Assembly (NCBI GenBank): GCA_963779755.1
Contig: CAVZZO010000003.1
Coordinates: 1,344,001 to 1,408,000 of the forward strand
DNA from: an uncultured Gemmatimonadales bacterium
Lineage (GTDB): Bacteria; Gemmatimonadota; Gemmatimonadetes; Gemmatimonadales; GWC2-71-9
Direction of reading: 5' to 3'
Length of the DNA stretch: 64,000 bases
Position 1 is the first letter of the stretch; each line of letters begins with the position of its first letter. Position numbers and translations under genes: made by a program. Of this stretch, positions 2,592-53,330 are shown piece after piece. The notes beneath the pieces are model-generated. The model had not been told where the DNA came from, did not search any database, and was given only the letters and a program-made list of their open reading frames with translations.

Positions 2592-5051
2592 ATGCAGGGA
2601 CTCATCTCCGACATCCGCTACACCCTTCGCGGCATCCGCCGCAGCCCGGGTTTCGCCCTGATCGTAGTGCTGACGCTGGCGCTGGGCGTGGGGGCGAATG
2701 TCATGATCTTCACCCTGATCAACGGCGTTCTCCTCCGGCCGCCGCCCGGGGTGAGCCGGCCGGACCGGCTGGTCGCGATCTACACCAGCGACTATTCCGG
2801 GCCGCCCTACAGCGCGTCCTCCTGGCTGGACTACCAGGATTTCCGCTCCCAGTCCGCCACCCTGAGCGACATCGCAAGCTATGCGCCGAGGCCCATGGCC
2901 GTGAGCACCGGCAGCGAGAACTTCCGCGGATTCGGCGAGCTGGTGAGCGGGAACTATTTCCGGCTGCTCGGCGTGCACCCCGTCGTGGGACGGGTCTTCA
3001 GCGCGGGCGAGGGCGAGCAGCCGGGCGCCGATCCCGTCGTGGTCATCAGTTACTCCATGTGGCAGAACCGCTACGGCGGGGCACCCGATGTCGCCGGGCG
3101 CACCCTGCGCATCGCCGGCCACCCGTTCACCATCATCGGCGTGGCGCCGCGGGGCTTTTCCAGCCTGCTGCGCGGAATTGGCGTCGACCTCTGGGTGCCC
3201 CAGACCATGGGCGCGGTGGTGCAGCCGGGCAGTGATGTGCTCGAGCGCCGGAGCAGCCGGGGGCTCCTGCTGGTGGGGCGGCTGAAACCTCACGCCACCT
3301 TCCCGCAGGCCCAGGCGGACCTGTCGCTGGTCGCCCATCGGCTGCACGATGCCCATCCGGATTCCTGGACCGACGTCCGCAAACAGAGCCGTATCGTCTC
3401 GCTGGTTCCCCAGATCAAGGCCGGTGTGTTCCCCCGCATGCGGGGAGCCGTTGTCGGCTTCTTCGCCGTGCTCATGGTGGTGGCGGGGCTGGTGCTGGTG
3501 ATCTGTTGCGCCAACCTCGCCAATCTCCTCCTGGCCCGGGGAACGGGCCGGCAGAAGGAAGTGGCCATCCGCCTGGCGCTGGGCGCCAACCGGCGGCGTC
3601 TGGTGCGGCAGCTGGTCACCGAGAGCATGGCCCTCGCGCTCCTGGGAGGCGGCGTCGGCGTGCTGATCGCCACCCAGGCGGCCCGTCTGGTCCAGCGCCT
3701 TCAGCCCCCCCTGCCTATTCCTGTCAGCCTGAATCTGGCGCCCGACCTGCGTGTGCTCGTCTTCGCCGCCGCGGCCGCCACCCTGACGGGACTGGTCTTC
3801 GGGCTCTATCCGGCGCTCCGGGCCACGCGCCCCCAGCTCACCAGCATGCTGCATGAGAGCGCGCCGCTGTTGCGGATCATCGGCCGCAGGCTGGCGCTGC
3901 GCGATGTGCTGGTCGTGGGCCAGGTGGCGGTCTCCACGGTCCTGCTGATAGCCGCCGGTCTCTTTCTGCGCAGCCTGCAGAAGGCTCAGTCGCTCGACAT
4001 CGGATTTCAACCCGATCACCTGGCACTCGCGACCTTCGAGCTGGGCATCCAGGGATACACCGATGAGCGGGGCCGGATCTTCTACGACCAGCTGCTGGAG
4101 CAGGCGCGGCGGACGCCCGGCGTGGAATCGGCCAGCCTGGTGCGCGATCTCCCCTTGAGCGTGTCGTTCAGCCGGCGCGGCCTGCAGCGTATCGAGGGCT
4201 ACGAGCCGGGCCCGACCGAGGATATTGAGACGGGCTACAACGTGGTGGATACGGCCTATTTCCGCACCATGGGAGTTCACCTGGTCCGGGGCCGGGCATT
4301 CTCCAGCCAGGACCGCACCGGGGCGACACCGGTGGTGATCGTCAACCAGGCGTTCGCCCAGCGCTACTGGCCCGATCAGGATCCGCTGGGCAGGCACATC
4401 ACCTTCGCCGACGCGCCGGCGGAGGTCGTTGGCGTGGCCCAGACGGGAAAGTATGCCTCGCTGAGCGAGGAAGACCGGCCCTACTTCTATATCCCCTGGC
4501 GGCAGGAATACCAGGGGGATATGACGCTCCTCCTGCGCACGGCCGGGCCGCCGGGCGAGAGCTTTACCGCCATCCAGCGCGAGGCCGCCGCCATCGATCG
4601 TGACCTGCCGGTGCAGCTCACCACGATGGACGACCACCTGGGCTTCGCCACCCTCGCGCAGCGGATCGGCGCGGCCCTGCTCGGCGCCTTCGGTGCCGTC
4701 GGCATCCTGCTCGCCGGGATCGGCCTCTACGGCGTTATGGCCTATGTGGTCTCGCGCCGCACCCGCGAGATGGGGATCCGCATGGCGCTGGGCTCGGAAC
4801 GTTCCGCCGTCATGGGCCTGGTCCTCCGGCAGGCGTTCCGCCTCACGGCTATCGGGCTGGTCATCGGCATGGGAATCGCCGCCGCTATATGCCACCTCCT
4901 GGGGCGCTTCCTCCTTGGCGTCCCACCGCTCGACCCGCTGACCTTTGGCGCCGTCGTGCCGGTCTTCGCACTGGCCGCACTGGCCGCAAGCCTCGCGCCC
5001 GCCCGGCGGGCCACGCGGGTCGCACCGGTGGAGGCGCTGCGCGCGGAGTGA
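2592..5051 (+). CDS. ADOP-family ABC permease #2
   Basis: 819 aa; DIRYTLRGIRRSPGF start, duplicated MacB_PCD/FtsX layout, GAAAGGA RBS. Confidence 0.93.
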   Translation: MQGLISDIRYTLRGIRRSPGFALIVVLTLALGVGANVMIFTLINGVLLRPPPGVSRPDRLVAIYTSDYSGPPYSASSWLDYQDFRSQSATLSDIASYAPRPMAVSTGSENFRGFGELVSGNYFRLLGVHPVVGRVFSAGEGEQPGADPVVVISYSMWQNRYGGAPDVAGRTLRIAGHPFTIIGVAPRGFSSLLRGIGVDLWVPQTMGAVVQPGSDVLERRSSRGLLLVGRLKPHATFPQAQADLSLVAHRLHDAHPDSWTDVRKQSRIVSLVPQIKAGVFPRMRGAVVGFFAVLMVVAGLVLVICCANLANLLLARGTGRQKEVAIRLALGANRRRLVRQLVTESMALALLGGGVGVLIATQAARLVQRLQPPLPIPVSLNLAPDLRVLVFAAAAATLTGLVFGLYPALRATRPQLTSMLHESAPLLRIIGRRLALRDVLVVGQVAVSTVLLIAAGLFLRSLQKAQSLDIGFQPDHLALATFELGIQGYTDERGRIFYDQLLEQARRTPGVESASLVRDLPLSVSFSRRGLQRIEGYEPGPTEDIETGYNVVDTAYFRTMGVHLVRGRAFSSQDRTGATPVVIVNQAFAQRYWPDQDPLGRHITFADAPAEVVGVAQTGKYASLSEEDRPYFYIPWRQEYQGDMTLLLRTAGPPGESFTAIQREAAAIDRDLPVQLTTMDDHLGFATLAQRIGAALLGAFGAVGILLAGIGLYGVMAYVVSRRTREMGIRMALGSERSAVMGLVLRQAFRLTAIGLVIGMGIAAAICHLLGRFLLGVPPLDPLTFGAVVPVFALAALAASLAPARRATRVAPVEALRAE

Positions 5052-5075: not shown

Positions 5076-5348
5076 CAAGCGCGAGCCCGAAGCCGATGCC
5101 TCCCGCAGCGCGCGTATGTGCCGTTGGAAAGGGCATGGAGATTCGCCCGGTGGCGCACTTCGGCGCGCGGAGGGAGGCTCGGCGAGGGCGAGCAGCAACA
5201 GGACCGAGTAAGAGGACGGCAAGCGCGAGCCCGAAGCTGATGCCTCCCGCAGCGCGCGTATGTGCCGTTGGCAAGAGCATGGAGACTCGCCCGGTGGCGC
5301 ACTTCGGCGCGCGGAGGGAGGCTCGGCGAGGGCGAGCAGCAACAGGAC
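5076..5348 (+). repeat. Two tandem ~129-bp direct repeats (period 144) carrying family-A rod-like hairpins (cores 5085-5189 and 5229-5333)
   Basis: Units 5076-5204 and 5220-5348 are nearly identical; nested stems GCCC/GGGC, GCCGA/TCGGC, GCCTCCC/GGGAGGC, GCGCGC/GCGCGC, GTGC/GCAC. Confidence 0.9.
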
Positions 5349-5356
5349 GGAGGACT

Positions 5357-5481
5357 GAGCGGGAAGCTGCAACGGTGCGAGGGCCGGGGGGCGGCGCAGG
5401 CACCACCGAACCGGGGAGTGGCGGGGTGGTATCGGTGCTGCCCGAGCGGCACGCCGGACCGAGCGCCGCGCGACAGAAGCC
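5357..5481 (+). repeat. Family-B hairpin element
   Basis: GGCACCACCGAACC...GGTATCGGTGCTGCC core shared with the copies at 12971, 15697 and 52778. Confidence 0.88.
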
Positions 5482-5558: not shown

Positions 5559-7979
5559 ATGCGCTCGTTCATCTCCGATTTCCGCCACGCCTGGCGGGGC
5601 CTCCGCAAGAGCCCCGGCTTTCTACTCACGGTCACCACCGTGCTGGCCCTGGGCATCGGCGGGACCGCCGTCATCTTCGCCGTCATCAACGCGGTGCTGC
5701 TGCGTCCGCTTCCCTTCCCCCACCAGGAAGAGTTGGTCCGGATCTTCAGTGCCAAGGGGGGGCAGCGATGGACCATGTCACCGCCCGATTTCACCGACAT
5801 GCGGCGGGAGACGCGTTCATTCACCGAACTGGCGGCCATGAACGAGGGAGACTACGCGCTCACCGGCGGCGGGCCCGCGGAACAGCTTTCCGGCGCGGCG
5901 GTGACGGGCGGCTTCTTCCCCGCTCTCGGAGTGCGGCCGCTCCTGGGCCGTACCATGACGCCGGCCGACGACGAGGCGGCAAGCGCGCGGGTGGCGGTCC
6001 TGGGCTACGGCCTCTGGCAGCGCCGGTTCGGCGGCGACCGGACCATCGTGGGCCGGACCATTCAACTGGACGGTGAGGCGACCCAGGTCATCGGGGTCAT
6101 GCCCGAAGGGTTCAAGTACCCCGACGGCTCCCAGGTCTGGCTCCAACTCCGGTTCACGCCCGAGGAGCTTCGCACCCAGCGCGGGGCGCACTACCTGGAT
6201 GTCCTGGGTCGGCTGAAGCGCGGAACCTCGATGGACGCCGCGGCGACCGATGTGGGACGGATTGCCGACAACCTGGCCGCGGCCTACCCCCGCACCAACG
6301 AAGGAGAAACGGCACGCATGACCGGACTGCGGGAGAGCATGGTGGGTGACGTCCGGACGCCTCTCATGATCCTGCTGGCGGCGGTCGGACTGGTCCTGCT
6401 CATCGCCTGCACCAACGTCGCGGGGCTGCTGCTGGTGCGCGGGTGGCGGCGCCAGCGGGAGCTGGCCATCCGTACCGCCCTGGGCGCCGCCCGGGGACAG
6501 ATCGTCCGCATCCTGCTGGCGGAGAGTGTGCTGTTGTCGGTGTTCGGCGGGTTGGGTGCCATCCTGCTCGCCGTCTGGGGCACGGCGCTCATCGCCGGCC
6601 TCACCGCGGTGCCCATCCCGCTCCTGGGGCAGACCCGGCTGGACTGGACCGTCCTGGGGTTCATCGCCGGGGTCGCCCTCCTGACCGCCGTCACCTTCGG
6701 CCTGGCCCCGGCCTGGCTGGTCTCGTCTCCCCGGGCGTTGCCGGAGCGCCTCAAGGCCGAGGGACGGGGAACAGCCGGGCGCCGCACCCGGAGCCGCCAC
6801 CTGCTGGTAATGATCGAGACCGCGCTCGCAGTGCTGCTGTTGACCAGCGCCGGGCTTCTGCTCCGGAGCTTCGAGCGCATGCGGCAGGTAGACCCGGGGT
6901 TCAATCCCGCGCACGTGCTCACCTTCGGGCTATCGCTCCCCGACGCAACCTACCCGCCGGAGCGCAGCGCGGCATTCATCCAGTCGCTCACCGAGCGGCT
7001 CGAGGCAGTCCCGGGGGTCGAATCGGCCGGGGCCATCTTCGGCCTGCCGCTCACCGGCTTCGGCTATTCCATCTCCGCCCTCACCCTGGACGGCCGCCAA
7101 CTCTCCCAGGAGGAGCAGGAACAGCTGAGCGTCCAGATCCGGGTGGTCACGCCGGATTTCTTCCGGGCGATGAGCATTCCCGTTCGCCGCGGACGCAGCA
7201 TCGAACCGGGCGACCGGGCGGGCACACCACCGGTCATCGTGGTGAACGAGGCGGCGGCCCGGCACATCTGGCCCGGCGCCGACCCGCTGGGGCACCACCT
7301 GGTGGTCGGCACCCGGCTCGGCCTGGGAGAGGAGCATGCGGGCGGGGAGGTGGTGGGCGTGATCGGCGACCTCAAGGACGAGAACCTGACCAGCCCGGCG
7401 GAGCCCACGATCTACCTCTCGCACGCGCAGTTCCCCACCGGGTACATGAGCATCGCCATACGTACCGGAGGCAACCCGCTGCTGCTCAACAACGCGGCCC
7501 GGCAAGCGCTGGCGGCGACCGATCCGGATGTGCCGATGTTCCGGGTGCGATCCATGGAACAACTGGTGGCGGCCAGTGTGGCGCAGCCGAAGCTCTACGC
7601 CGTACTGCTCACCATCTTCGCCGGAGTGGCGATCCTGCTGGCCGCCATCGGCCTGTACGGCGTGCTGGCGCAGGGCGTCGCCCAGCGGCGGCGAGAATTG
7701 GGGATCCGCATCGCGCTGGGCGCGCGTACCCGGGAAGTCGTCCGGCTGGTCCTGCGCCAGGCCTTCCTGCTGGCCGCTGCCGGGGTGGCCCTGGGCCTGC
7801 TGGCGGGCCTGCTGGCGACCCGGATCCTTACCGGGCTCCTCCACGGCGTGAACCCGCGAGACCCACTCACGCTGGGAGGGGTCACCCTCCTGCTGTTCGG
7901 GGTGTGCCTGCTGGCCAGCTGGCTGCCGGCGCGCCGCGCGGCGCGGGTGGAGCCGATGGATGTGTTGAGAGAGGAGTGA
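5559..7979 (+). CDS. ADOP-family ABC permease #3
   Basis: 806 aa with the family motifs; ends RRAARVEPMDVLREE. Confidence 0.93.
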   Translation: MRSFISDFRHAWRGLRKSPGFLLTVTTVLALGIGGTAVIFAVINAVLLRPLPFPHQEELVRIFSAKGGQRWTMSPPDFTDMRRETRSFTELAAMNEGDYALTGGGPAEQLSGAAVTGGFFPALGVRPLLGRTMTPADDEAASARVAVLGYGLWQRRFGGDRTIVGRTIQLDGEATQVIGVMPEGFKYPDGSQVWLQLRFTPEELRTQRGAHYLDVLGRLKRGTSMDAAATDVGRIADNLAAAYPRTNEGETARMTGLRESMVGDVRTPLMILLAAVGLVLLIACTNVAGLLLVRGWRRQRELAIRTALGAARGQIVRILLAESVLLSVFGGLGAILLAVWGTALIAGLTAVPIPLLGQTRLDWTVLGFIAGVALLTAVTFGLAPAWLVSSPRALPERLKAEGRGTAGRRTRSRHLLVMIETALAVLLLTSAGLLLRSFERMRQVDPGFNPAHVLTFGLSLPDATYPPERSAAFIQSLTERLEAVPGVESAGAIFGLPLTGFGYSISALTLDGRQLSQEEQEQLSVQIRVVTPDFFRAMSIPVRRGRSIEPGDRAGTPPVIVVNEAAARHIWPGADPLGHHLVVGTRLGLGEEHAGGEVVGVIGDLKDENLTSPAEPTIYLSHAQFPTGYMSIAIRTGGNPLLLNNAARQALAATDPDVPMFRVRSMEQLVAASVAQPKLYAVLLTIFAGVAILLAAIGLYGVLAQGVAQRRRELGIRIALGARTREVVRLVLRQAFLLAAAGVALGLLAGLLATRILTGLLHGVNPRDPLTLGGVTLLLFGVCLLASWLPARRAARVEPMDVLREE

Positions 7980-12949: not shown

Positions 12950-13272
12950 AAGGACTCAGGACCGAGGACTGAGCGGGAAGCTGCTACGAGGCGAGGGCCC
13001 GGGTTGCCGGCGCAGGCACCACCGAACCGGGGGGTGGCGGGGTGGTATCGGTGCTGCCGGAGCCGGCACGCCGGACCGAGCGCCGCGCGACAGAAGCCTG
13101 AGGACTGAGGACTGGGGACTGAGGACTGGGGACTGAGGACTGAGGACTGAGGACTGAGGACTGAGCGGAAAGCTCCGCCCTACCGCCATACGCCGGAAAG
13201 GACTCCAATGCAGTCTCTGCTCTTCGATCTCCGTTACGCGTTCCGCGGTCTGCGCAAGAGTCCGGGGTTCGC
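12908..13272 (+). repeat. ~365-bp direct repeat copy 1 (ADOP 3' end + family-B hairpin + (TGAGGAC)n + RBS + ADOP 5' end)
   Basis: Near-identical to 15626-15994 by direct comparison. Confidence 0.92.
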
Positions 13273-15667: not shown

Positions 15668-15994
15668 AAAGGACTGAGGACTGAGGACTGAGGACTGAGC
15701 GGGAAGCTGCTACGGGGCGAGGGCCCGGGGTTGCCGGCGCAGGCACCACCGAACCCGGGGGGTGGCGGGGTGGTATCGGTGCTGCCGGAGCCGGCACGCC
15801 GGACCGAGCGCCGCCCGACAGAAGCCTGAGGACTGAGGACTGAGGACTGAGGACTGAGGACTGAGGACTGAGGACTGAGGACTGAGCGGAAAGCTACCGC
15901 CCTACCGCCATACGCCGGAAAGGACTCCAATGCAGGCTCTGCTCTTCGATCTCCGTTACGCGTTCCGCGGGCTGCGCAAGAGTCCAGGGTTCGC
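15626..15994 (+). repeat. ~369-bp direct repeat copy 2
   Basis: Matches 12908-13272; family-B hairpin at 15697-15826 and heptamer run at 15827-15886. Confidence 0.92.
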
Positions 15995-50301: not shown

Positions 50302-52080
50302 ATGACCCGCCGCTCCCGTTTCGCGCTCATCCTCGTGCTGCCGCTGCTCCCGGCGCTCCTGCCGGAGGCGGTGCCAGCCCAGACCCCCGGCCAATGGCCC
50401 CTCCCGGCGCACGACTACACCGCCACCCGCTACAGCACTCTGTCGCAGATCAGCACCGCCAACGCCTCGCGGCTCCAACCGGTATGGAATTTTTCCACCG
50501 GCGTGCTGGGCGGCCACGAGGGTTCGCCGCTGGTGGTGAACAACACCATGTATGTGGTGACTCCCTGGCCCGACGTCCTCTATGCGTTCGACCTCACCAA
50601 GGAAGACTATCCGCTCAAGTGGAAGTACCGGCCCGATGTGAACCCCGCCGCACTGGGGGTCGCCTGCTGTGACGCGATCAACCGCGGAGCGGCGTACGCC
50701 GACGGGCGCATCGTATTCAACCTGCTGGACGGTCACACCGTGGCGGTGGACGCGGAGACGGGCCGCGAGCTGTGGAAAACGAAAGTCGCCGAGATCGGCC
50801 AGGGCGAAACGCTGACCATGGCGCCCCTGGTGGTGAAGAACCGGGTCATCGTGGGGCCGTCCGGCGGAGAACTGGGCATCCGGGGCTGGGTGAAAGGCCT
50901 CGACCTGACCAGCGGGAAGGTGGTCTGGACCGCCTACAACGCCGGCCCCGACAGCGAGGTGCTGGCGAAACCCGGCGTGTTCAAGCCCTTCTACCAGCCG
51001 GGAGCGGATCTGGCCCTGAAGAGCTGGACCGATGCCGACTATCGGCACGGCGGTGTGCCGGTCTGGGGCTGGCTCTCCTACGATCCCGAGCTCGACCTGG
51101 TCTATTTCGGCACCGGCAACCCGGGCCCCTACAACCCGGAACAGCGGCCGGGCGACAACAAGTGGTCGGCATCGGTGCTGGCCCGCCGGCCGGAAGACGG
51201 CTCGCTGGTCTGGGCCTACCAGTTCACCCCGCACGACAACTGGGATTATGACGCCAACGCCGAGATGATCCTGGCCGATCTTACCATCGCGGGACGGCAG
51301 CGCAAGACGCTGGTGCACTTCGACAAGAACGGCTTCGCCTACGTGCTGGACCGCGCCACCGGGGAAGTGCTCCAGGCGAAGCCGTACGTGGACGTGACCT
51401 GGGCCAGCGGAGTCGATCTCAAGACCGGCCGGCCGCTGGTGGATTCGGCCAAACTGACCGGCGCTTCCCGGGGCGAAGTGCAGCACATCTGTCCCAGTCT
51501 GGAGGGCGGCACCAGCCCCGCCTCGCCCGCCTCCTACTCCCCCGCCACCGGGCTGTTCTACGTCTCTACGGTGAACCTCTGCATGAGCTGGACGGCCACC
51601 AAGACGGGCTATATCGAGGGGACGCCGTATATCGGAGCCAGCACGCCCTATACCGTGGGTGCCGGGGGCAATATGGGCGCCTTCATCGCCTTCGATGCCG
51701 CGGCGGGCAAGCGGGTCTGGCAGATCAGGGAGAAGTTCCCCGTCTGGAGCGGCAGCGTGGTCACCGCCGGCAACGTGGTCTTCTATGGCACGCTCGATGG
51801 ATGGTTCAAGGCGGCCGACGCGAAGACCGGCAAACTGCTCTGGAAGTTCAAGGTCGGCTCCGGCGTGGTGGGGGCGCCCATCACCTACACCGGCGCCGAC
51901 GGCCGGCAGTATGTGGCGGTCTATGCCGGTATCGGAGGCGACTGGTTCCTGCTGTCCGGTGATATGCGTTCCGACGACCCGGCCGACGTCCGGCCACGGT
52001 CGGACTTCGCCCCCGATCTGGCCCGATACACCAGCCAGGGAGGTATGGTGTGGGTGTTTGGGCTGAGGACTGAGGACTGA
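50302..52080 (+). CDS. PQQ-dependent alcohol/methanol dehydrogenase (XoxF/ExaF-like, lanthanide-type motif)
   Basis: GHEGSPL, ACCDAINRG vicinal Cys, SGGELG, GTGNPGP, PHDNWDYD, Trp docking repeats, signal peptide. Confidence 0.9.
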   Translation: MTRRSRFALILVLPLLPALLPEAVPAQTPGQWPLPAHDYTATRYSTLSQISTANASRLQPVWNFSTGVLGGHEGSPLVVNNTMYVVTPWPDVLYAFDLTKEDYPLKWKYRPDVNPAALGVACCDAINRGAAYADGRIVFNLLDGHTVAVDAETGRELWKTKVAEIGQGETLTMAPLVVKNRVIVGPSGGELGIRGWVKGLDLTSGKVVWTAYNAGPDSEVLAKPGVFKPFYQPGADLALKSWTDADYRHGGVPVWGWLSYDPELDLVYFGTGNPGPYNPEQRPGDNKWSASVLARRPEDGSLVWAYQFTPHDNWDYDANAEMILADLTIAGRQRKTLVHFDKNGFAYVLDRATGEVLQAKPYVDVTWASGVDLKTGRPLVDSAKLTGASRGEVQHICPSLEGGTSPASPASYSPATGLFYVSTVNLCMSWTATKTGYIEGTPYIGASTPYTVGAGGNMGAFIAFDAAAGKRVWQIREKFPVWSGSVVTAGNVVFYGTLDGWFKAADAKTGKLLWKFKVGSGVVGAPITYTGADGRQYVAVYAGIGGDWFLLSGDMRSDDPADVRPRSDFAPDLARYTSQGGMVWVFGLRTED

Positions 52081-52765
52081 GGACTGGGGACTGGGGACTG
52101 GGGACTGGGGAGTGAGGAGTGAGGAGTGAGGAGTGAGGACAGACTCCACCCGAAGCCGATGGCTCCCGGAGCGGGCGTAGGTGCCCAGGCACAGCGGGGA
52201 ACCAACCCCCTGTTAGCATCTCCAGCCCGCGGAGGGAGCCACGGCGAGGGTGGGCGATGGACTGAGGAATGAGGACTGAGGACTGAGGACTGAGTCCACC
52301 CGAAGCCGATGGCTCCCGGAGCGGGCGTAGGTGCCCCTGCACAGTGGGGAGCCAATCCCCTGTTAGCACCTCCAGGCCGCGGAGGGAGCCACGACGAGGG
52401 TGGGCGATGGACTCAGGAATGAGGACTGAGGACTGAGGACTGAGGACTGAGGACTGAGTCCACCCGAAGCCGATGGCTCCCGGAGCGGGCGTAGGTGCCC
52501 ATGCACAGTGGGGAGCCAATCCCCTGTTAGCACCTCCAGGCCGCGGAGGGAGCCACGGCGAGGGTGGGCGATGGACTGAGGAATGAGGACTGAGGACTGA
52601 GGACTGAGTCCACCCGAAGCCGATGGCTCCCGGAGCGGGCGTAGGTGCCCAGGCACAGCGGGGAACCAACCCCCTGTTAGCATCTCCAGGCCGCGGAGGG
52701 AGCCACGGCGAGGGTGGACGATGGACTGAGGACTGAGGACTGAGGACTGAGGACTGAGGACTGAG
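52063..52765 (+). repeat. Array of four 116-bp family-A hairpin units separated by (TGAGGAC)n
   Basis: Units at 52145-52260, 52295-52410, 52459-52574 and 52609-52724; periods 150/164/150. Confidence 0.95.
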
Positions 52766-52777
52766 CGGAAAAGTAGT

Positions 52778-52831
52778 GCCGGCGCAGGCACCACCGAACC
52801 GGGCGAATCGGATCGGTGCTGCCGGAACCGG
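52778..52831 (+). repeat. Family-B hairpin core with alternative apical loop
   Basis: GCCGGCGCAGGCACCACCGAACCG-GGCGAAT-CGGATCGGTGCTGCCGGAACCGG. Confidence 0.85.
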
Positions 52832-52865
52832 GAACCGGACCCGTCAGCCAAACGCCGGGAGCTTC

Positions 52866-53330
52866 ATGAGGTACTTCCAGACCTGCCTGCTTCTCCTGTT
52901 GGCCGCCGCCTGTAGCGGGGAACGCGGGCGCGCCCGGCCGCCCGCCCAGGCCGGGGCCACGGCTGCCCCGCCGCAGGTGCGCTACGATCAGCATGTCTTC
53001 GCCGGCGGGGTCGCACCCGCGGCGGACAGCATGTCCAATCCCTACGCCAACGATGCGTCTTCGGTCCAGGCCGGCGAGCAGCTCTTCGGCTCGATGAACT
53101 GCGACGGCTGCCATGGCGGGCCACCGACCGGCTTCGTGGGCCCCAGTCTGGTTGACGGGCGCTGGCGCTACGGCGGCGCCGACGGGGCGGTCTTCCAGTC
53201 CATCTTCTACGGCCGTCCGCGCGGCATGCCCGCCTACGGCGGCCTGCTCACCACTGAGATGATCTGGAAGCTGGTGACCTACATCAAGAGCCAGCCGGTA
53301 TCGGACGATGTGCCGACGGAAAGATGGTGA
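52866..53330 (+). CDS. Mono-heme c-type cytochrome lipoprotein (cytochrome cL/XoxG-like partner)
   Basis: Lipobox LAAAC, NPY...G.QLF..MNCDGCHG, GPSL.DG.WRYG, GMPAYG. Confidence 0.88.
   Translation: MRYFQTCLLLLLAAACSGERGRARPPAQAGATAAPPQVRYDQHVFAGGVAPAADSMSNPYANDASSVQAGEQLFGSMNCDGCHGGPPTGFVGPSLVDGRWRYGGADGAVFQSIFYGRPRGMPAYGGLLTTEMIWKLVTYIKSQPVSDDVPTERW

Follow-up and report, generated by a model that had tools for sequence, protein, structure and literature searches.

What is an array of long hairpins doing between two genes that follow one another in the same direction? In an uncultured Gemmatimonadales bacterium (GenBank assembly GCA_963779755.1), the gene for a pyrroloquinoline quinone (PQQ)-dependent dehydrogenase and that for a c-type cytochrome are separated by 785 nt (52081-52865), in which four rod-like hairpin units lie in tandem on the + strand (52145-52721). 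Coordinates given without a contig name refer to the window, which is the whole stretch of 64,000 nt analysed here (contig CAVZZO010000003.1, positions 1,344,001 to 1,408,000). A first, sequence-only reading of this DNA had proposed three options for the rods, namely an unrecognised structured RNA, an mRNA processing or stability module, or a non-autonomous mobile hairpin. Intergenic repeats are common in bacteria, and in most families it is not known how they are copied or what they do. Our analysis indicates that the rods are probably copies of a dispersed, non-autonomous, non-coding and hairpin-forming intergenic repeat that belongs to no described family and resembles repetitive extragenic palindromic (REP) sequences and bacterial interspersed mosaic elements (BIMEs), enterobacterial repetitive intergenic consensus (ERIC) sequences or Correia elements.

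Copies of the rod in this genome and its relatives

The four hairpin units described in the sequence-only reading are present, each being an imperfect palindrome of about 113 nt. The element is the hairpin itself, and units of this and other genomes span 102-122 nt. Unit 1 (variant A, 52145-52257) matches covariance model R1, which was built from 39 units of this genome, with 103.4 bits and folds with -72.9 kcal/mol (z -6.2). The corresponding values are 102.4 bits and -62.6 kcal/mol for unit 2 (variant B, 52295-52407), 107.1 bits and -70.0 kcal/mol for unit 3 (variant B', 52459-52571), and 102.5 bits and -73.3 kcal/mol for unit 4 (variant A', 52609-52721), all on the + strand. Folded as RNA, the + strand units range from -62.6 to -73.3 kcal/mol, with z scores of -3.1 to -6.7 against dinucleotide shuffles, and for each of them 0 of 200 shuffles folded as well as the native sequence. 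A second array in the window, with a period of 144 nt and 2.0 copies, contains two + strand units on the same scaffold (5082-5195, 111.7 bits with R1, -65.0 kcal/mol; 5226-5339, 108.7 bits, -69.2 kcal/mol). The compensatory stem changes claimed between the two arrays were confirmed, i.e., GGCTCCC/GGGAGCC versus GCCTCCC/GGGAGGC, GCGGGC/GCCCGC versus GCGCGC/GCGCGC, and ACCC/GGGT versus GCCC/GGGC. The GCGGGC stem, however, has its full GCCCGC partner in unit 1 only, while units 2-4 carry GGCCGC and hence one G.G mismatch.

The genome (4.23 Mb in 4 contigs, 68% G+C) was searched with blastn and iterated nhmmer, the latter yielding 42 hits. With R1, 40 matches (39 of them strong) were found at about 20 intergenic loci on both large contigs. 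The six window units belong to this dispersed family of about 40 genome copies, which contradicts the idea of a locus-specific RNA. Copies are found alone or in arrays of between two and six units and fall into three apical subtypes plus a few half-copies, and the window array is 90-96% identical (blastn) to five units located 220 kb away. Among 36 flanking open reading frames (ORFs) tested, 35 are the best-supported ORFs near the units by G+C content at third codon positions (GC3). Those with Pfam matches represent unrelated housekeeping genes, including thiolase, enoyl-CoA hydratase, AcrB, YceG, PBP1A, glutamate dehydrogenase and others.

In 40 relatives, R1 gave two weak matches, which shared the architecture and had quite different helices. 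Because R1 came from one genome only and made the family look genome-specific, its wide spread became visible only with a rebuilt model, R2, composed of 12 diverse units of this genome and three foreign units found with R1. R2 matched 40 of 150 other genomes of the same family of the Genome Taxonomy Database (GTDB), covering 28 of 78 genera including the window's own, with up to 19 matches per genome among the 24 candidates scored in each. A sample of the order gave matches in 19 of 61 genomes of the element's own family and in 0 of 89 from two sister families, and a sample of the phylum in 20 of 71 and, for eleven other families, 0 of 79; one positive in each sample is the unpublished genome G204. 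A 19-base core pattern run over 185,579 species (one genome each) hit 67 loci, and R2 confirmed 39 of the 46 loci from records titled Gemmatimonadota, Gemmatimonadales or Gemmatimonadaceae, all of them metagenome-assembled genomes, and none of the 21 from other phyla. Searches of plasmid and phage collections (blastn in distant mode, with one unit as the query in each) returned no match. Collecting copies genome-wide and phylum-wide with a covariance model thus yielded a distribution within the element's own family, and no match was obtained outside it in the genomes sampled.

The sequence-only reading had left room for the hairpins to fall into a known Rfam family or a described family of REP sequences or miniature inverted-repeat transposable elements, and no such match was found. 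In Rfam 15, the whole window and 10 unit-bearing loci from six genomes had 0 matches at gathering scores; at E values up to 10, the best match over the array reached 16.1 bits against a gathering score of 60, which is at chance level. In the open-access literature and bioRxiv, nothing relevant was found on REP sequences, palindromic repeats or structured RNA of Gemmatimonas or Gemmatimonadetes, which is no proof of unpublished status. The rod is apparently a folded repeat of one Gemmatimonadota family of soil bacteria, ~113 nt long, that has not been described previously. The covariance model also allows rods to be separated from genuine regulatory RNAs in the annotation of Gemmatimonadota.

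With respect to the locus itself, the array does lie between the two genes named in the sequence-only reading, the dehydrogenase gene upstream (50302-52080, + strand; PF01011, 3e-64) and the cytochrome gene downstream (52866-53330, + strand; PF13442, 7.7e-13). Its link to the PQQ dehydrogenase operon proved incidental. No unit is present in any of 80 metagenomic loci that code for relatives of the dehydrogenase (66-77% identity), and on this ground an operon-specific regulator of the dehydrogenase was rejected. In 57 of these loci there is enough downstream sequence, and in 56 of the 57 an ORF with a CxxCH motif starts between -49 and +43 nt from the dehydrogenase stop codon. Because the relatives lack units and their junctions abut or overlap, the array is, judged from these comparisons, an insertion specific to its lineage, at a junction where the two genes normally abut or overlap. 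The family accounts for long 'empty' spacers within operons, such as the dehydrogenase/cytochrome gap.

Covariation, conserved loops and strand

Within this genome, 89.8% of the scaffold cells are paired, compared to 81.3% in shuffles, and 13 of 26 pairs have changed on both sides, many of these double-sided changes being inherited by entire subfamilies. Covariation grew when units of other genomes were aligned. In alignment A4 (35 units from 29 other genomes), which like A5 was fitted to the model, 92.1% of the cells are paired versus 66.3% in shuffles, 22 of 24 scaffold pairs have changed on both sides, and 0 of 500 shuffles reach any of five measures. As a control, sliding the partner by 1-3 columns lowered pairing to 34-50%. 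Alignment A5, with 47 further units, gave 90.1% pairing, again versus 66% in shuffles, and likewise 22 of 24 pairs, with none of 500 shuffles reaching its values. RNAalifold on plain MAFFT alignments recovered the same helices, plus an A-U to G-C switch in the inner helix. Selection on the fold, which the sequence-only reading had derived from the two window arrays, is thus strongly supported by comparison across genomes.

In the unit, two loops, one of 3x2 (GAA/GA) and one of 3x3 (GNA/GRA), split the helices P1, P2 and P3; the 2x2 GU/CA mismatch follows, then one short helix, the tandem G.A step and, at the end, an apex that varies. The most conserved part is formed by unpaired letters, namely the 3x3 5'-GNA / 5'-GRA loop and the 2x2 GU/CA mismatch; further inside, CAGU-GA-GCG opposite CGC-GA-ACUG, with the tandem G.A step, is conserved as well. 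A28, G29, U37, G40 and G149 are fixed in all 35 units of A4, and the inner loop letters are near-invariant across at least 28 genera of one GTDB family, with variable helices. In the units of this genome the outer loop is GAA/GA, which is not universal and varies between genera. The window units are atypical inside, having AGGUGC/GCAYCU in place of the tandem G.A step. At the P3/P4 junction, C-G-U-C/U is conserved (CGUC in 22 and CGUU in 13 of the 35 A4 units), where the window units have CGUA, and UUGGGAU recurs in the otherwise variable apex.

The conserved unpaired purine loops lead us to predict a specific protein partner, which would recognise the folded single strand, either single-stranded DNA (ssDNA) or RNA, through these loops. 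As the helices have drifted freely while a few unpaired purines are fixed over dozens of genera, such a partner could be fished for with folded RNA or ssDNA.

As to which strand is folded, the sequence-only reading had pointed to a GCATCT variant that keeps its pairing as G-U on the + strand only. This G-U is real in units 1 and 4, but it does not prove strand specificity, because G-U and A-C are equally frequent within the scaffold of this genome (16 versus 15, no signal). In other genomes, G-U exceeds A-C on the purine-loop strand (29:6 in A4 and 52:23 in A5, 81:29 in total), with the reservation that G.T is tolerated in DNA hairpins too and that the model may favour G-U slightly. This excess suggests that the purine-loop strand is the strand whose fold is selected. 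In terms of energy, RNA folds are strong on both strands (-58 to -73 kcal/mol), and the purine-loop strand is the better folded one in 37 of the 39 units of the genome (mean -68.1 versus -62.1 kcal/mol). Folded as DNA, the + strand of unit 1 of the main array and of unit 1 of the 5082 array reaches -35.2 and -35.4 kcal/mol, and the complementary strand -34.2 and -30.6 kcal/mol, respectively.

These features bear on the main rival explanation, in which the rod is a multi-copy structured RNA, transcribed alone or within the transcript of a neighbour, whose purine loops and apex would bind a protein or RNA as a sponge, scaffold or processing signal, with copy number acting as dosage. Loops more conserved than covarying helices, the G-U excess on one strand, the recurrent apical UUGGGAU and the better fold of the purine-loop strand all speak for it, as does the predominance of sense loci in this genome (see below). 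The energy edge of the purine-loop strand, however, may reflect RNA mismatch bonuses, since the DNA strands fold alike. Moreover, over 70 nt on each side of 81 units, no conserved motif or promoter was found (at most 0.2 bits per position), and a T-rich tail, with at least 5 T in the first 15 nt downstream, occurs in just 2 of the 81. Together with the placement and copy-number data presented in the next section, this makes a multi-copy RNA rather improbable in our view.

Placement, orientation and means of spread

Fifteen loci of this genome have co-directional neighbours, with units in the sense orientation at 13 and antisense at 2 (binomial two-sided p ~0.007). Both antisense loci lie in a PBP1A / Ser-Thr kinase / PBP1A region, and the remaining loci comprise 2 convergent and 3 unresolved ones. 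In one convergent region, three + units follow a + gene, and a - unit lies ~1 kb off among - strand ORFs. According to cumulative GC skew, with which the weak gene-strand bias of this genome agrees, the purine-loop strand is on the C-rich strand in 17 of 20 loci. Neither of these two biases predicts the other. In other genomes, 36 of 82 units were classified by crude GC3-based gene calls, which left 46 unclassified, and comprised 11 tandem-sense, 10 tandem-antisense, 12 convergent and 3 divergent cases; Pfam matches of neighbour ORFs add roughly three to four sense and three antisense cases. Mean bit scores are alike for sense (44.7) and antisense (42.8) copies in these genomes. The family avoids divergent (promoter) spacers, as REP-type repeats do, and outside this genome the direction of neighbouring genes makes no difference to it. 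The approximately 1:1 orientation outside this genome is therefore evidence against a module acting only within sense mRNA. Of the three options in the sequence-only reading, the non-autonomous mobile hairpin is the one that fits best.

Many units begin 20-100 nt past a stop codon. This position, the ratio of convergent to divergent contexts (12 versus 3), the similar frequencies of sense and antisense copies outside this genome and the strong RNA folds on both strands would be expected if the rods were 3'-end hairpins, that is, bidirectional terminators without a U-tract or exonuclease barriers, selected for a strong hairpin either way. We consider this explanation unlikely, however. Stability alone does not explain the invariant unpaired purines or the G-U/A-C asymmetry, and arrays of four to six units within apparent operons would cut off the downstream gene. 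The U-tract, found in just 2 of 81 units, is absent from the + strand of the window array, and a search for intrinsic terminators detected no terminator-like site on the + strand of 51800-53000.

The relationships among units point to multiplication within genomes. Of 108 units, 92 have their nearest relative in the genome they come from; identity averages 0.64 within genomes versus 0.46 between them, and the best identity of this genome's units to any foreign unit is 0.58. Blocks of several units with identical spacers recur at distant loci, e.g., C1:804338-804975 and C3:1025088-1026110. In this genome, GGACTGA-like repeats on the same strand lie within 80 nt of 25 of 39 units (on both sides in 18; on the opposite strand only in 2), and 9 of the 27 exact arrays of at least three GGACTGA have a unit no more than 300 nt away. 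The unit flanks are unique sequence in most other genomes. The element would multiply through a copying mechanism or else through recombination and gene conversion. Recombination through GGACTGA-type heptamer arrays plausibly aids its spread in this genome, given that entire blocks are repeated and that units sit inside such arrays; as most foreign copies are flanked by unique sequence, it cannot be how the element spreads in general.

Such behaviour weighs against the multi-copy RNA, as copy number ranges from 0 to ~40 among related genomes, copies cluster by genome, sense and antisense copies are about equally frequent and score alike outside this genome, and half-copies and an apex-less mini-unit behave as parts of a repeat and not as a gene. 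The mini-unit (69 nt) occurs at 2714-2782 of locus L123 (G246:C3 1420-2900, in a genome of another genus), where units are flanked by a (GGGAAGC)n array on one side and by its reverse complement on the other. The L123 units are followed by a short motif, GGAUUCCUCGG...CCCUCGGAAUGACA, which has a similar counterpart next to a unit of this genome (L013). In genome G070, there are two LigD (ligase plus primase-polymerase) genes with an antisense unit directly after each (L082, L122), which suggests a duplicated gene-plus-unit segment.

REP sequences and their relatives are the natural comparison for the dispersed repeat that we favour. REP palindromes are 20-40 bp long with a GTAG or CGTC tetranucleotide at one end (PMC3733652), REP/BIME sequences and REPINs are associated with RAYT transposases (PMC3733652, PMC3116915), and CGTC-tagged REPs seem to have no transposase of their own (PMC3733652); Gemmatimonadota are not mentioned in PMC3733652 (0 occurrences). 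The rods share with REP/BIME/REPIN elements that they are intergenic, hairpin-forming and multi-copy, with copy numbers varying widely among related genomes. They likewise lie after genes and within operons, form clusters and mosaics with other short motifs, occur in both orientations and as inverted doublets, and maintain the hairpin by compensatory change. They differ from REPs in being about three times as long, in conserving purine internal loops inside a long rod, and in having no flanking or co-occurring RAYT. Furthermore, the rod ends (P1) vary and covary and carry no terminal GTAG/CGTC, CGU-C/U being internal only, and rods are conserved over at least 28 genera, while REPs are species-specific. 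CGTC-tagged REPs are alike in being a palindromic family without an identifiable transposase, and 22 of 35 rods have CGUC at the base of the inner hairpin; in the rods, however, the tag is internal and reads CGUU in the other 13, and size and multi-loop architecture differ.

The sequence-only reading had proposed looking at co-occurrence with HUH/RAYT genes, which bears on whether the rods are REPIN-like elements mobilised in trans by a RAYT, a transposase of the Y1 HUH type with the folded single strand as its cleavage substrate. This genome has three Y1_Tnp genes, inverted unit doublets exist (G004, G054, G091 twice, G051), relative to GC skew 17 of 20 loci point the same way, and the C-G-U-C/U at the P3/P4 junction recalls the GTAG/CGTC tags of REPs described in PMC3733652. 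The link was nevertheless rejected, and we regard it as very unlikely. None of the three Y1_Tnp loci has an R1 match at E values up to 10, and one of the Y1 genes is accompanied by a short hairpin repeat of its own, unlike the rod. Of the genomes with rods 26 of 40 carry Y1 genes, and of those without rods 62 of 110 do (a set that includes the unpublished G149), so that there is no co-occurrence across these 150 genomes, and G072 and G133, with 19 and 17 matches, have no Y1 gene. In addition, units are three times the length of a REP with an internal and not a terminal tag, and the single-contig genome G051 has a replication-strand split of just 5:3, although the skew of the 20 sampled 20-kb pieces is noisy and this split carries little information. 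A family without the usual RAYT partner offers a test of other routes by which REP-like elements may spread, such as recombination via short tandem repeats.

The Y1 gene with its own repeat (C1:953128-953475, L054) is flanked by a short double hairpin, of which four more copies lie at C1:671.9-680.5 kb, 10-19 kb from an integron integrase gene (C1:690828-691766). Probably, these double hairpins near the C1 integrase represent attC sites; the Y1 gene may reside on a cassette.

Sites of the attC type are imperfect palindromes of 57-141 nt with a variable apex and an R''/R' core of consensus RYYYAAC ... GTTRRRY, and they are read as a folded single strand via unpaired bases and not via the sequence of the helix. 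The rods resemble them as imperfect palindromes of similar size with a variable apex, which raises the question of whether they are attC-like recombination sites of gene cassettes, either of integrons or of a new cassette system. Two integron integrases of this genome (C3:405150-406091 and C1:690828-691766) score above the curated cut-off of TIGR02249 (448 and 425 bits), and at genus g24 a unit and a small gene of G161 are missing at the syntenic site of five congeners, the sole synteny comparison, between species ~70-75% identical with unreadable junctions. A cassette-array-like layout was also seen at locus L090 (G139:C319, 1868-4654), a region of lower G+C (58-61%) with five - strand units, four of which each follow a small co-directional ORF, two of these ORFs belonging to the Uma2 family (PF05685). 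Nonetheless, this explanation was rejected and is the least probable of those considered. The outer helix lacks a conserved GTTRRRY/RYYYAAC-type core, none being present among the outer A4 columns, and the units nearest the integrases (C3:487005; C1:575972 and C1:799437) are ~80 kb or more away. Most units separate housekeeping genes or form arrays without ORFs between them and do not bound cassettes in this genome, and the short double hairpin near the C1 integrase is a better attC candidate.

Elements that resemble the rods in architecture are ERIC sequences, also called intergenic repeat units, and Correia/NEMIS elements, which are imperfect palindromes of 100-150 bp found in transcribed intergenic regions in either orientation and are thought to act on mRNA stability or processing. 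ERIC is not known to have a transposase, and Correia elements have defined terminal inverted repeats and a TA duplication. The likeness is one of architecture only, and these elements belong to another phylum (enterobacteria, Neisseria). Unlike Correia elements, rods show no target duplication and occur in tandem arrays with heptamer spacers.

Applied to the window, the dispersed-repeat reading implies that heptamers, four units and a second hairpin module, together a block of 785 nt, were inserted into the gene junction. The block is most likely co-transcribed with its neighbours, because it is sense-oriented between two co-directional genes, and four very stable RNA hairpins would then form in the dehydrogenase/cytochrome transcript. 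By analogy to REP and ERIC only, these hairpins might act as barriers to 3'-to-5' exonucleases or as processing sites and so uncouple the dehydrogenase from the cytochrome.

Several observations count against a mobile repeat and temper our preference for it. No mobilising enzyme was found among the Y1 genes and loci or the neighbours checked; in other genomes, the 141 long ORFs nearest to units include no match to a transposase or integrase family, with insertion sequences of matching ends sought among neighbours only, and a pair of inverted units at C3:741094-742142 encloses just two small secreted-protein-like ORFs and no enzyme candidate. The neighbouring ORFs sampled in this and other genomes likewise gave no match to a DNA polymerase III alpha family. 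The unit is an inverted repeat over its full length, its termini are not conserved and its outer helix covaries, leaving no conserved terminal sequence. A target-site duplication was not detected either, the best flanking repeat averaging 4.33 nt for 82 units versus 4.07 nt for 241 displaced controls. The loop conservation, the G-U excess and the apical UUGGGAU are more typical of a functional RNA, and the 13 of 15 informative loci in the sense orientation are as expected of a transcribed element. Finally, the orientation counts depend on the crude gene calls mentioned above, and the synteny comparison included no close strains.

These points leave some room for a more tentative proposal, in which the rod would be the substrate of an undiscovered protein that reads its strand-specific purine loops. 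It would then be either a new hairpin-guided copy system, working without conserved ends, target duplication or Y1, or a multi-copy structured RNA family peculiar to one Gemmatimonadota family; we hold this to be possible, though not probable. If such a copy system exists, the double orientation bias of this genome (17/20 and 13/15) would point to copying coupled to replication.

Spacers and accompanying repeats

The main array has a period of 150 nt and 4.2 copies over 52109-52758 (Tandem Repeats Finder). The distances between unit starts are 150, 164 and 150 nt, and the excess of 14 nt corresponds to two heptamers, in line with the earlier observation that the spacers differ by whole heptamers. 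The A-B-B'-A' order also holds, with one set of variants common to units 1 and 4 and another to units 2 and 3. A heptamer array of CTGAGGA, GGGGACT and GAGTGAG units (52063-52144, period 7, 11.1 copies) starts within the last codons of the dehydrogenase gene and ends at unit 1. The spacers between units, at 52258-52294 (GGACTGA-type heptamers; period 7 over 52259-52294), 52408-52458 (two heptamers longer than the other two; period 7 over 52409-52458) and 52572-52608 (period 7 over 52573-52608), are likewise heptameric, and a (GGACTGA)n array (52722-52765, period 7, 6.1 copies, 100% matches) trails the last unit; all are on the + strand.

According to PMC4692102, G-rich repeats with a heptameric unit in Xanthomonas and Nostoc are found mainly between aligned ORFs and are under-represented where ORFs diverge; most are transcribed. 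The spacers and flanks of the rods in this genome are such heptamer arrays; the repeats of Xanthomonas and Nostoc are, however, simple tandem repeats, whereas rods are complex 113-nt structured elements embedded in them. The tract at 52090-52115, (GGGGACT)n, shares its unit with the quadruplex-forming GGGGA(C/T)T repeats of Nostoc described in PMC4692102.

Downstream of the trailing array lies a short form of a second hairpin module, termed family B (52766-52850, + strand; blastn match to the module at 5355-5460; -39.7 kcal/mol). For the cytochrome gene that follows, the in-frame ATG at 52866, which gives a signal-peptide-like N-terminus, is a likelier start than the GTG at 52776 of the ORF list. 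The second rod array is flanked by two + strand genes for MacB/FtsX-type permeases, one upstream (2592-5051) and one downstream (5559-7979), both with PF12704 and PF02687, and is followed by a family B module (5355-5460, + strand; blastn, ~10 genome copies; -54.7 kcal/mol). Family B (~105 nt) has further window copies at 12969-13077 and 15695-15805. It is found downstream of both rod arrays, and elsewhere in the window it adjoins heptamer arrays. In this genome, the motif GAGCGGRAAGCU stands just before many rod units and the family B module, which hints at a common mosaic grammar. Tandem Repeats Finder reported many further arrays of 7-9-mers in the window, and short tandem repeats fill the spacers of Gemmatimonadota.

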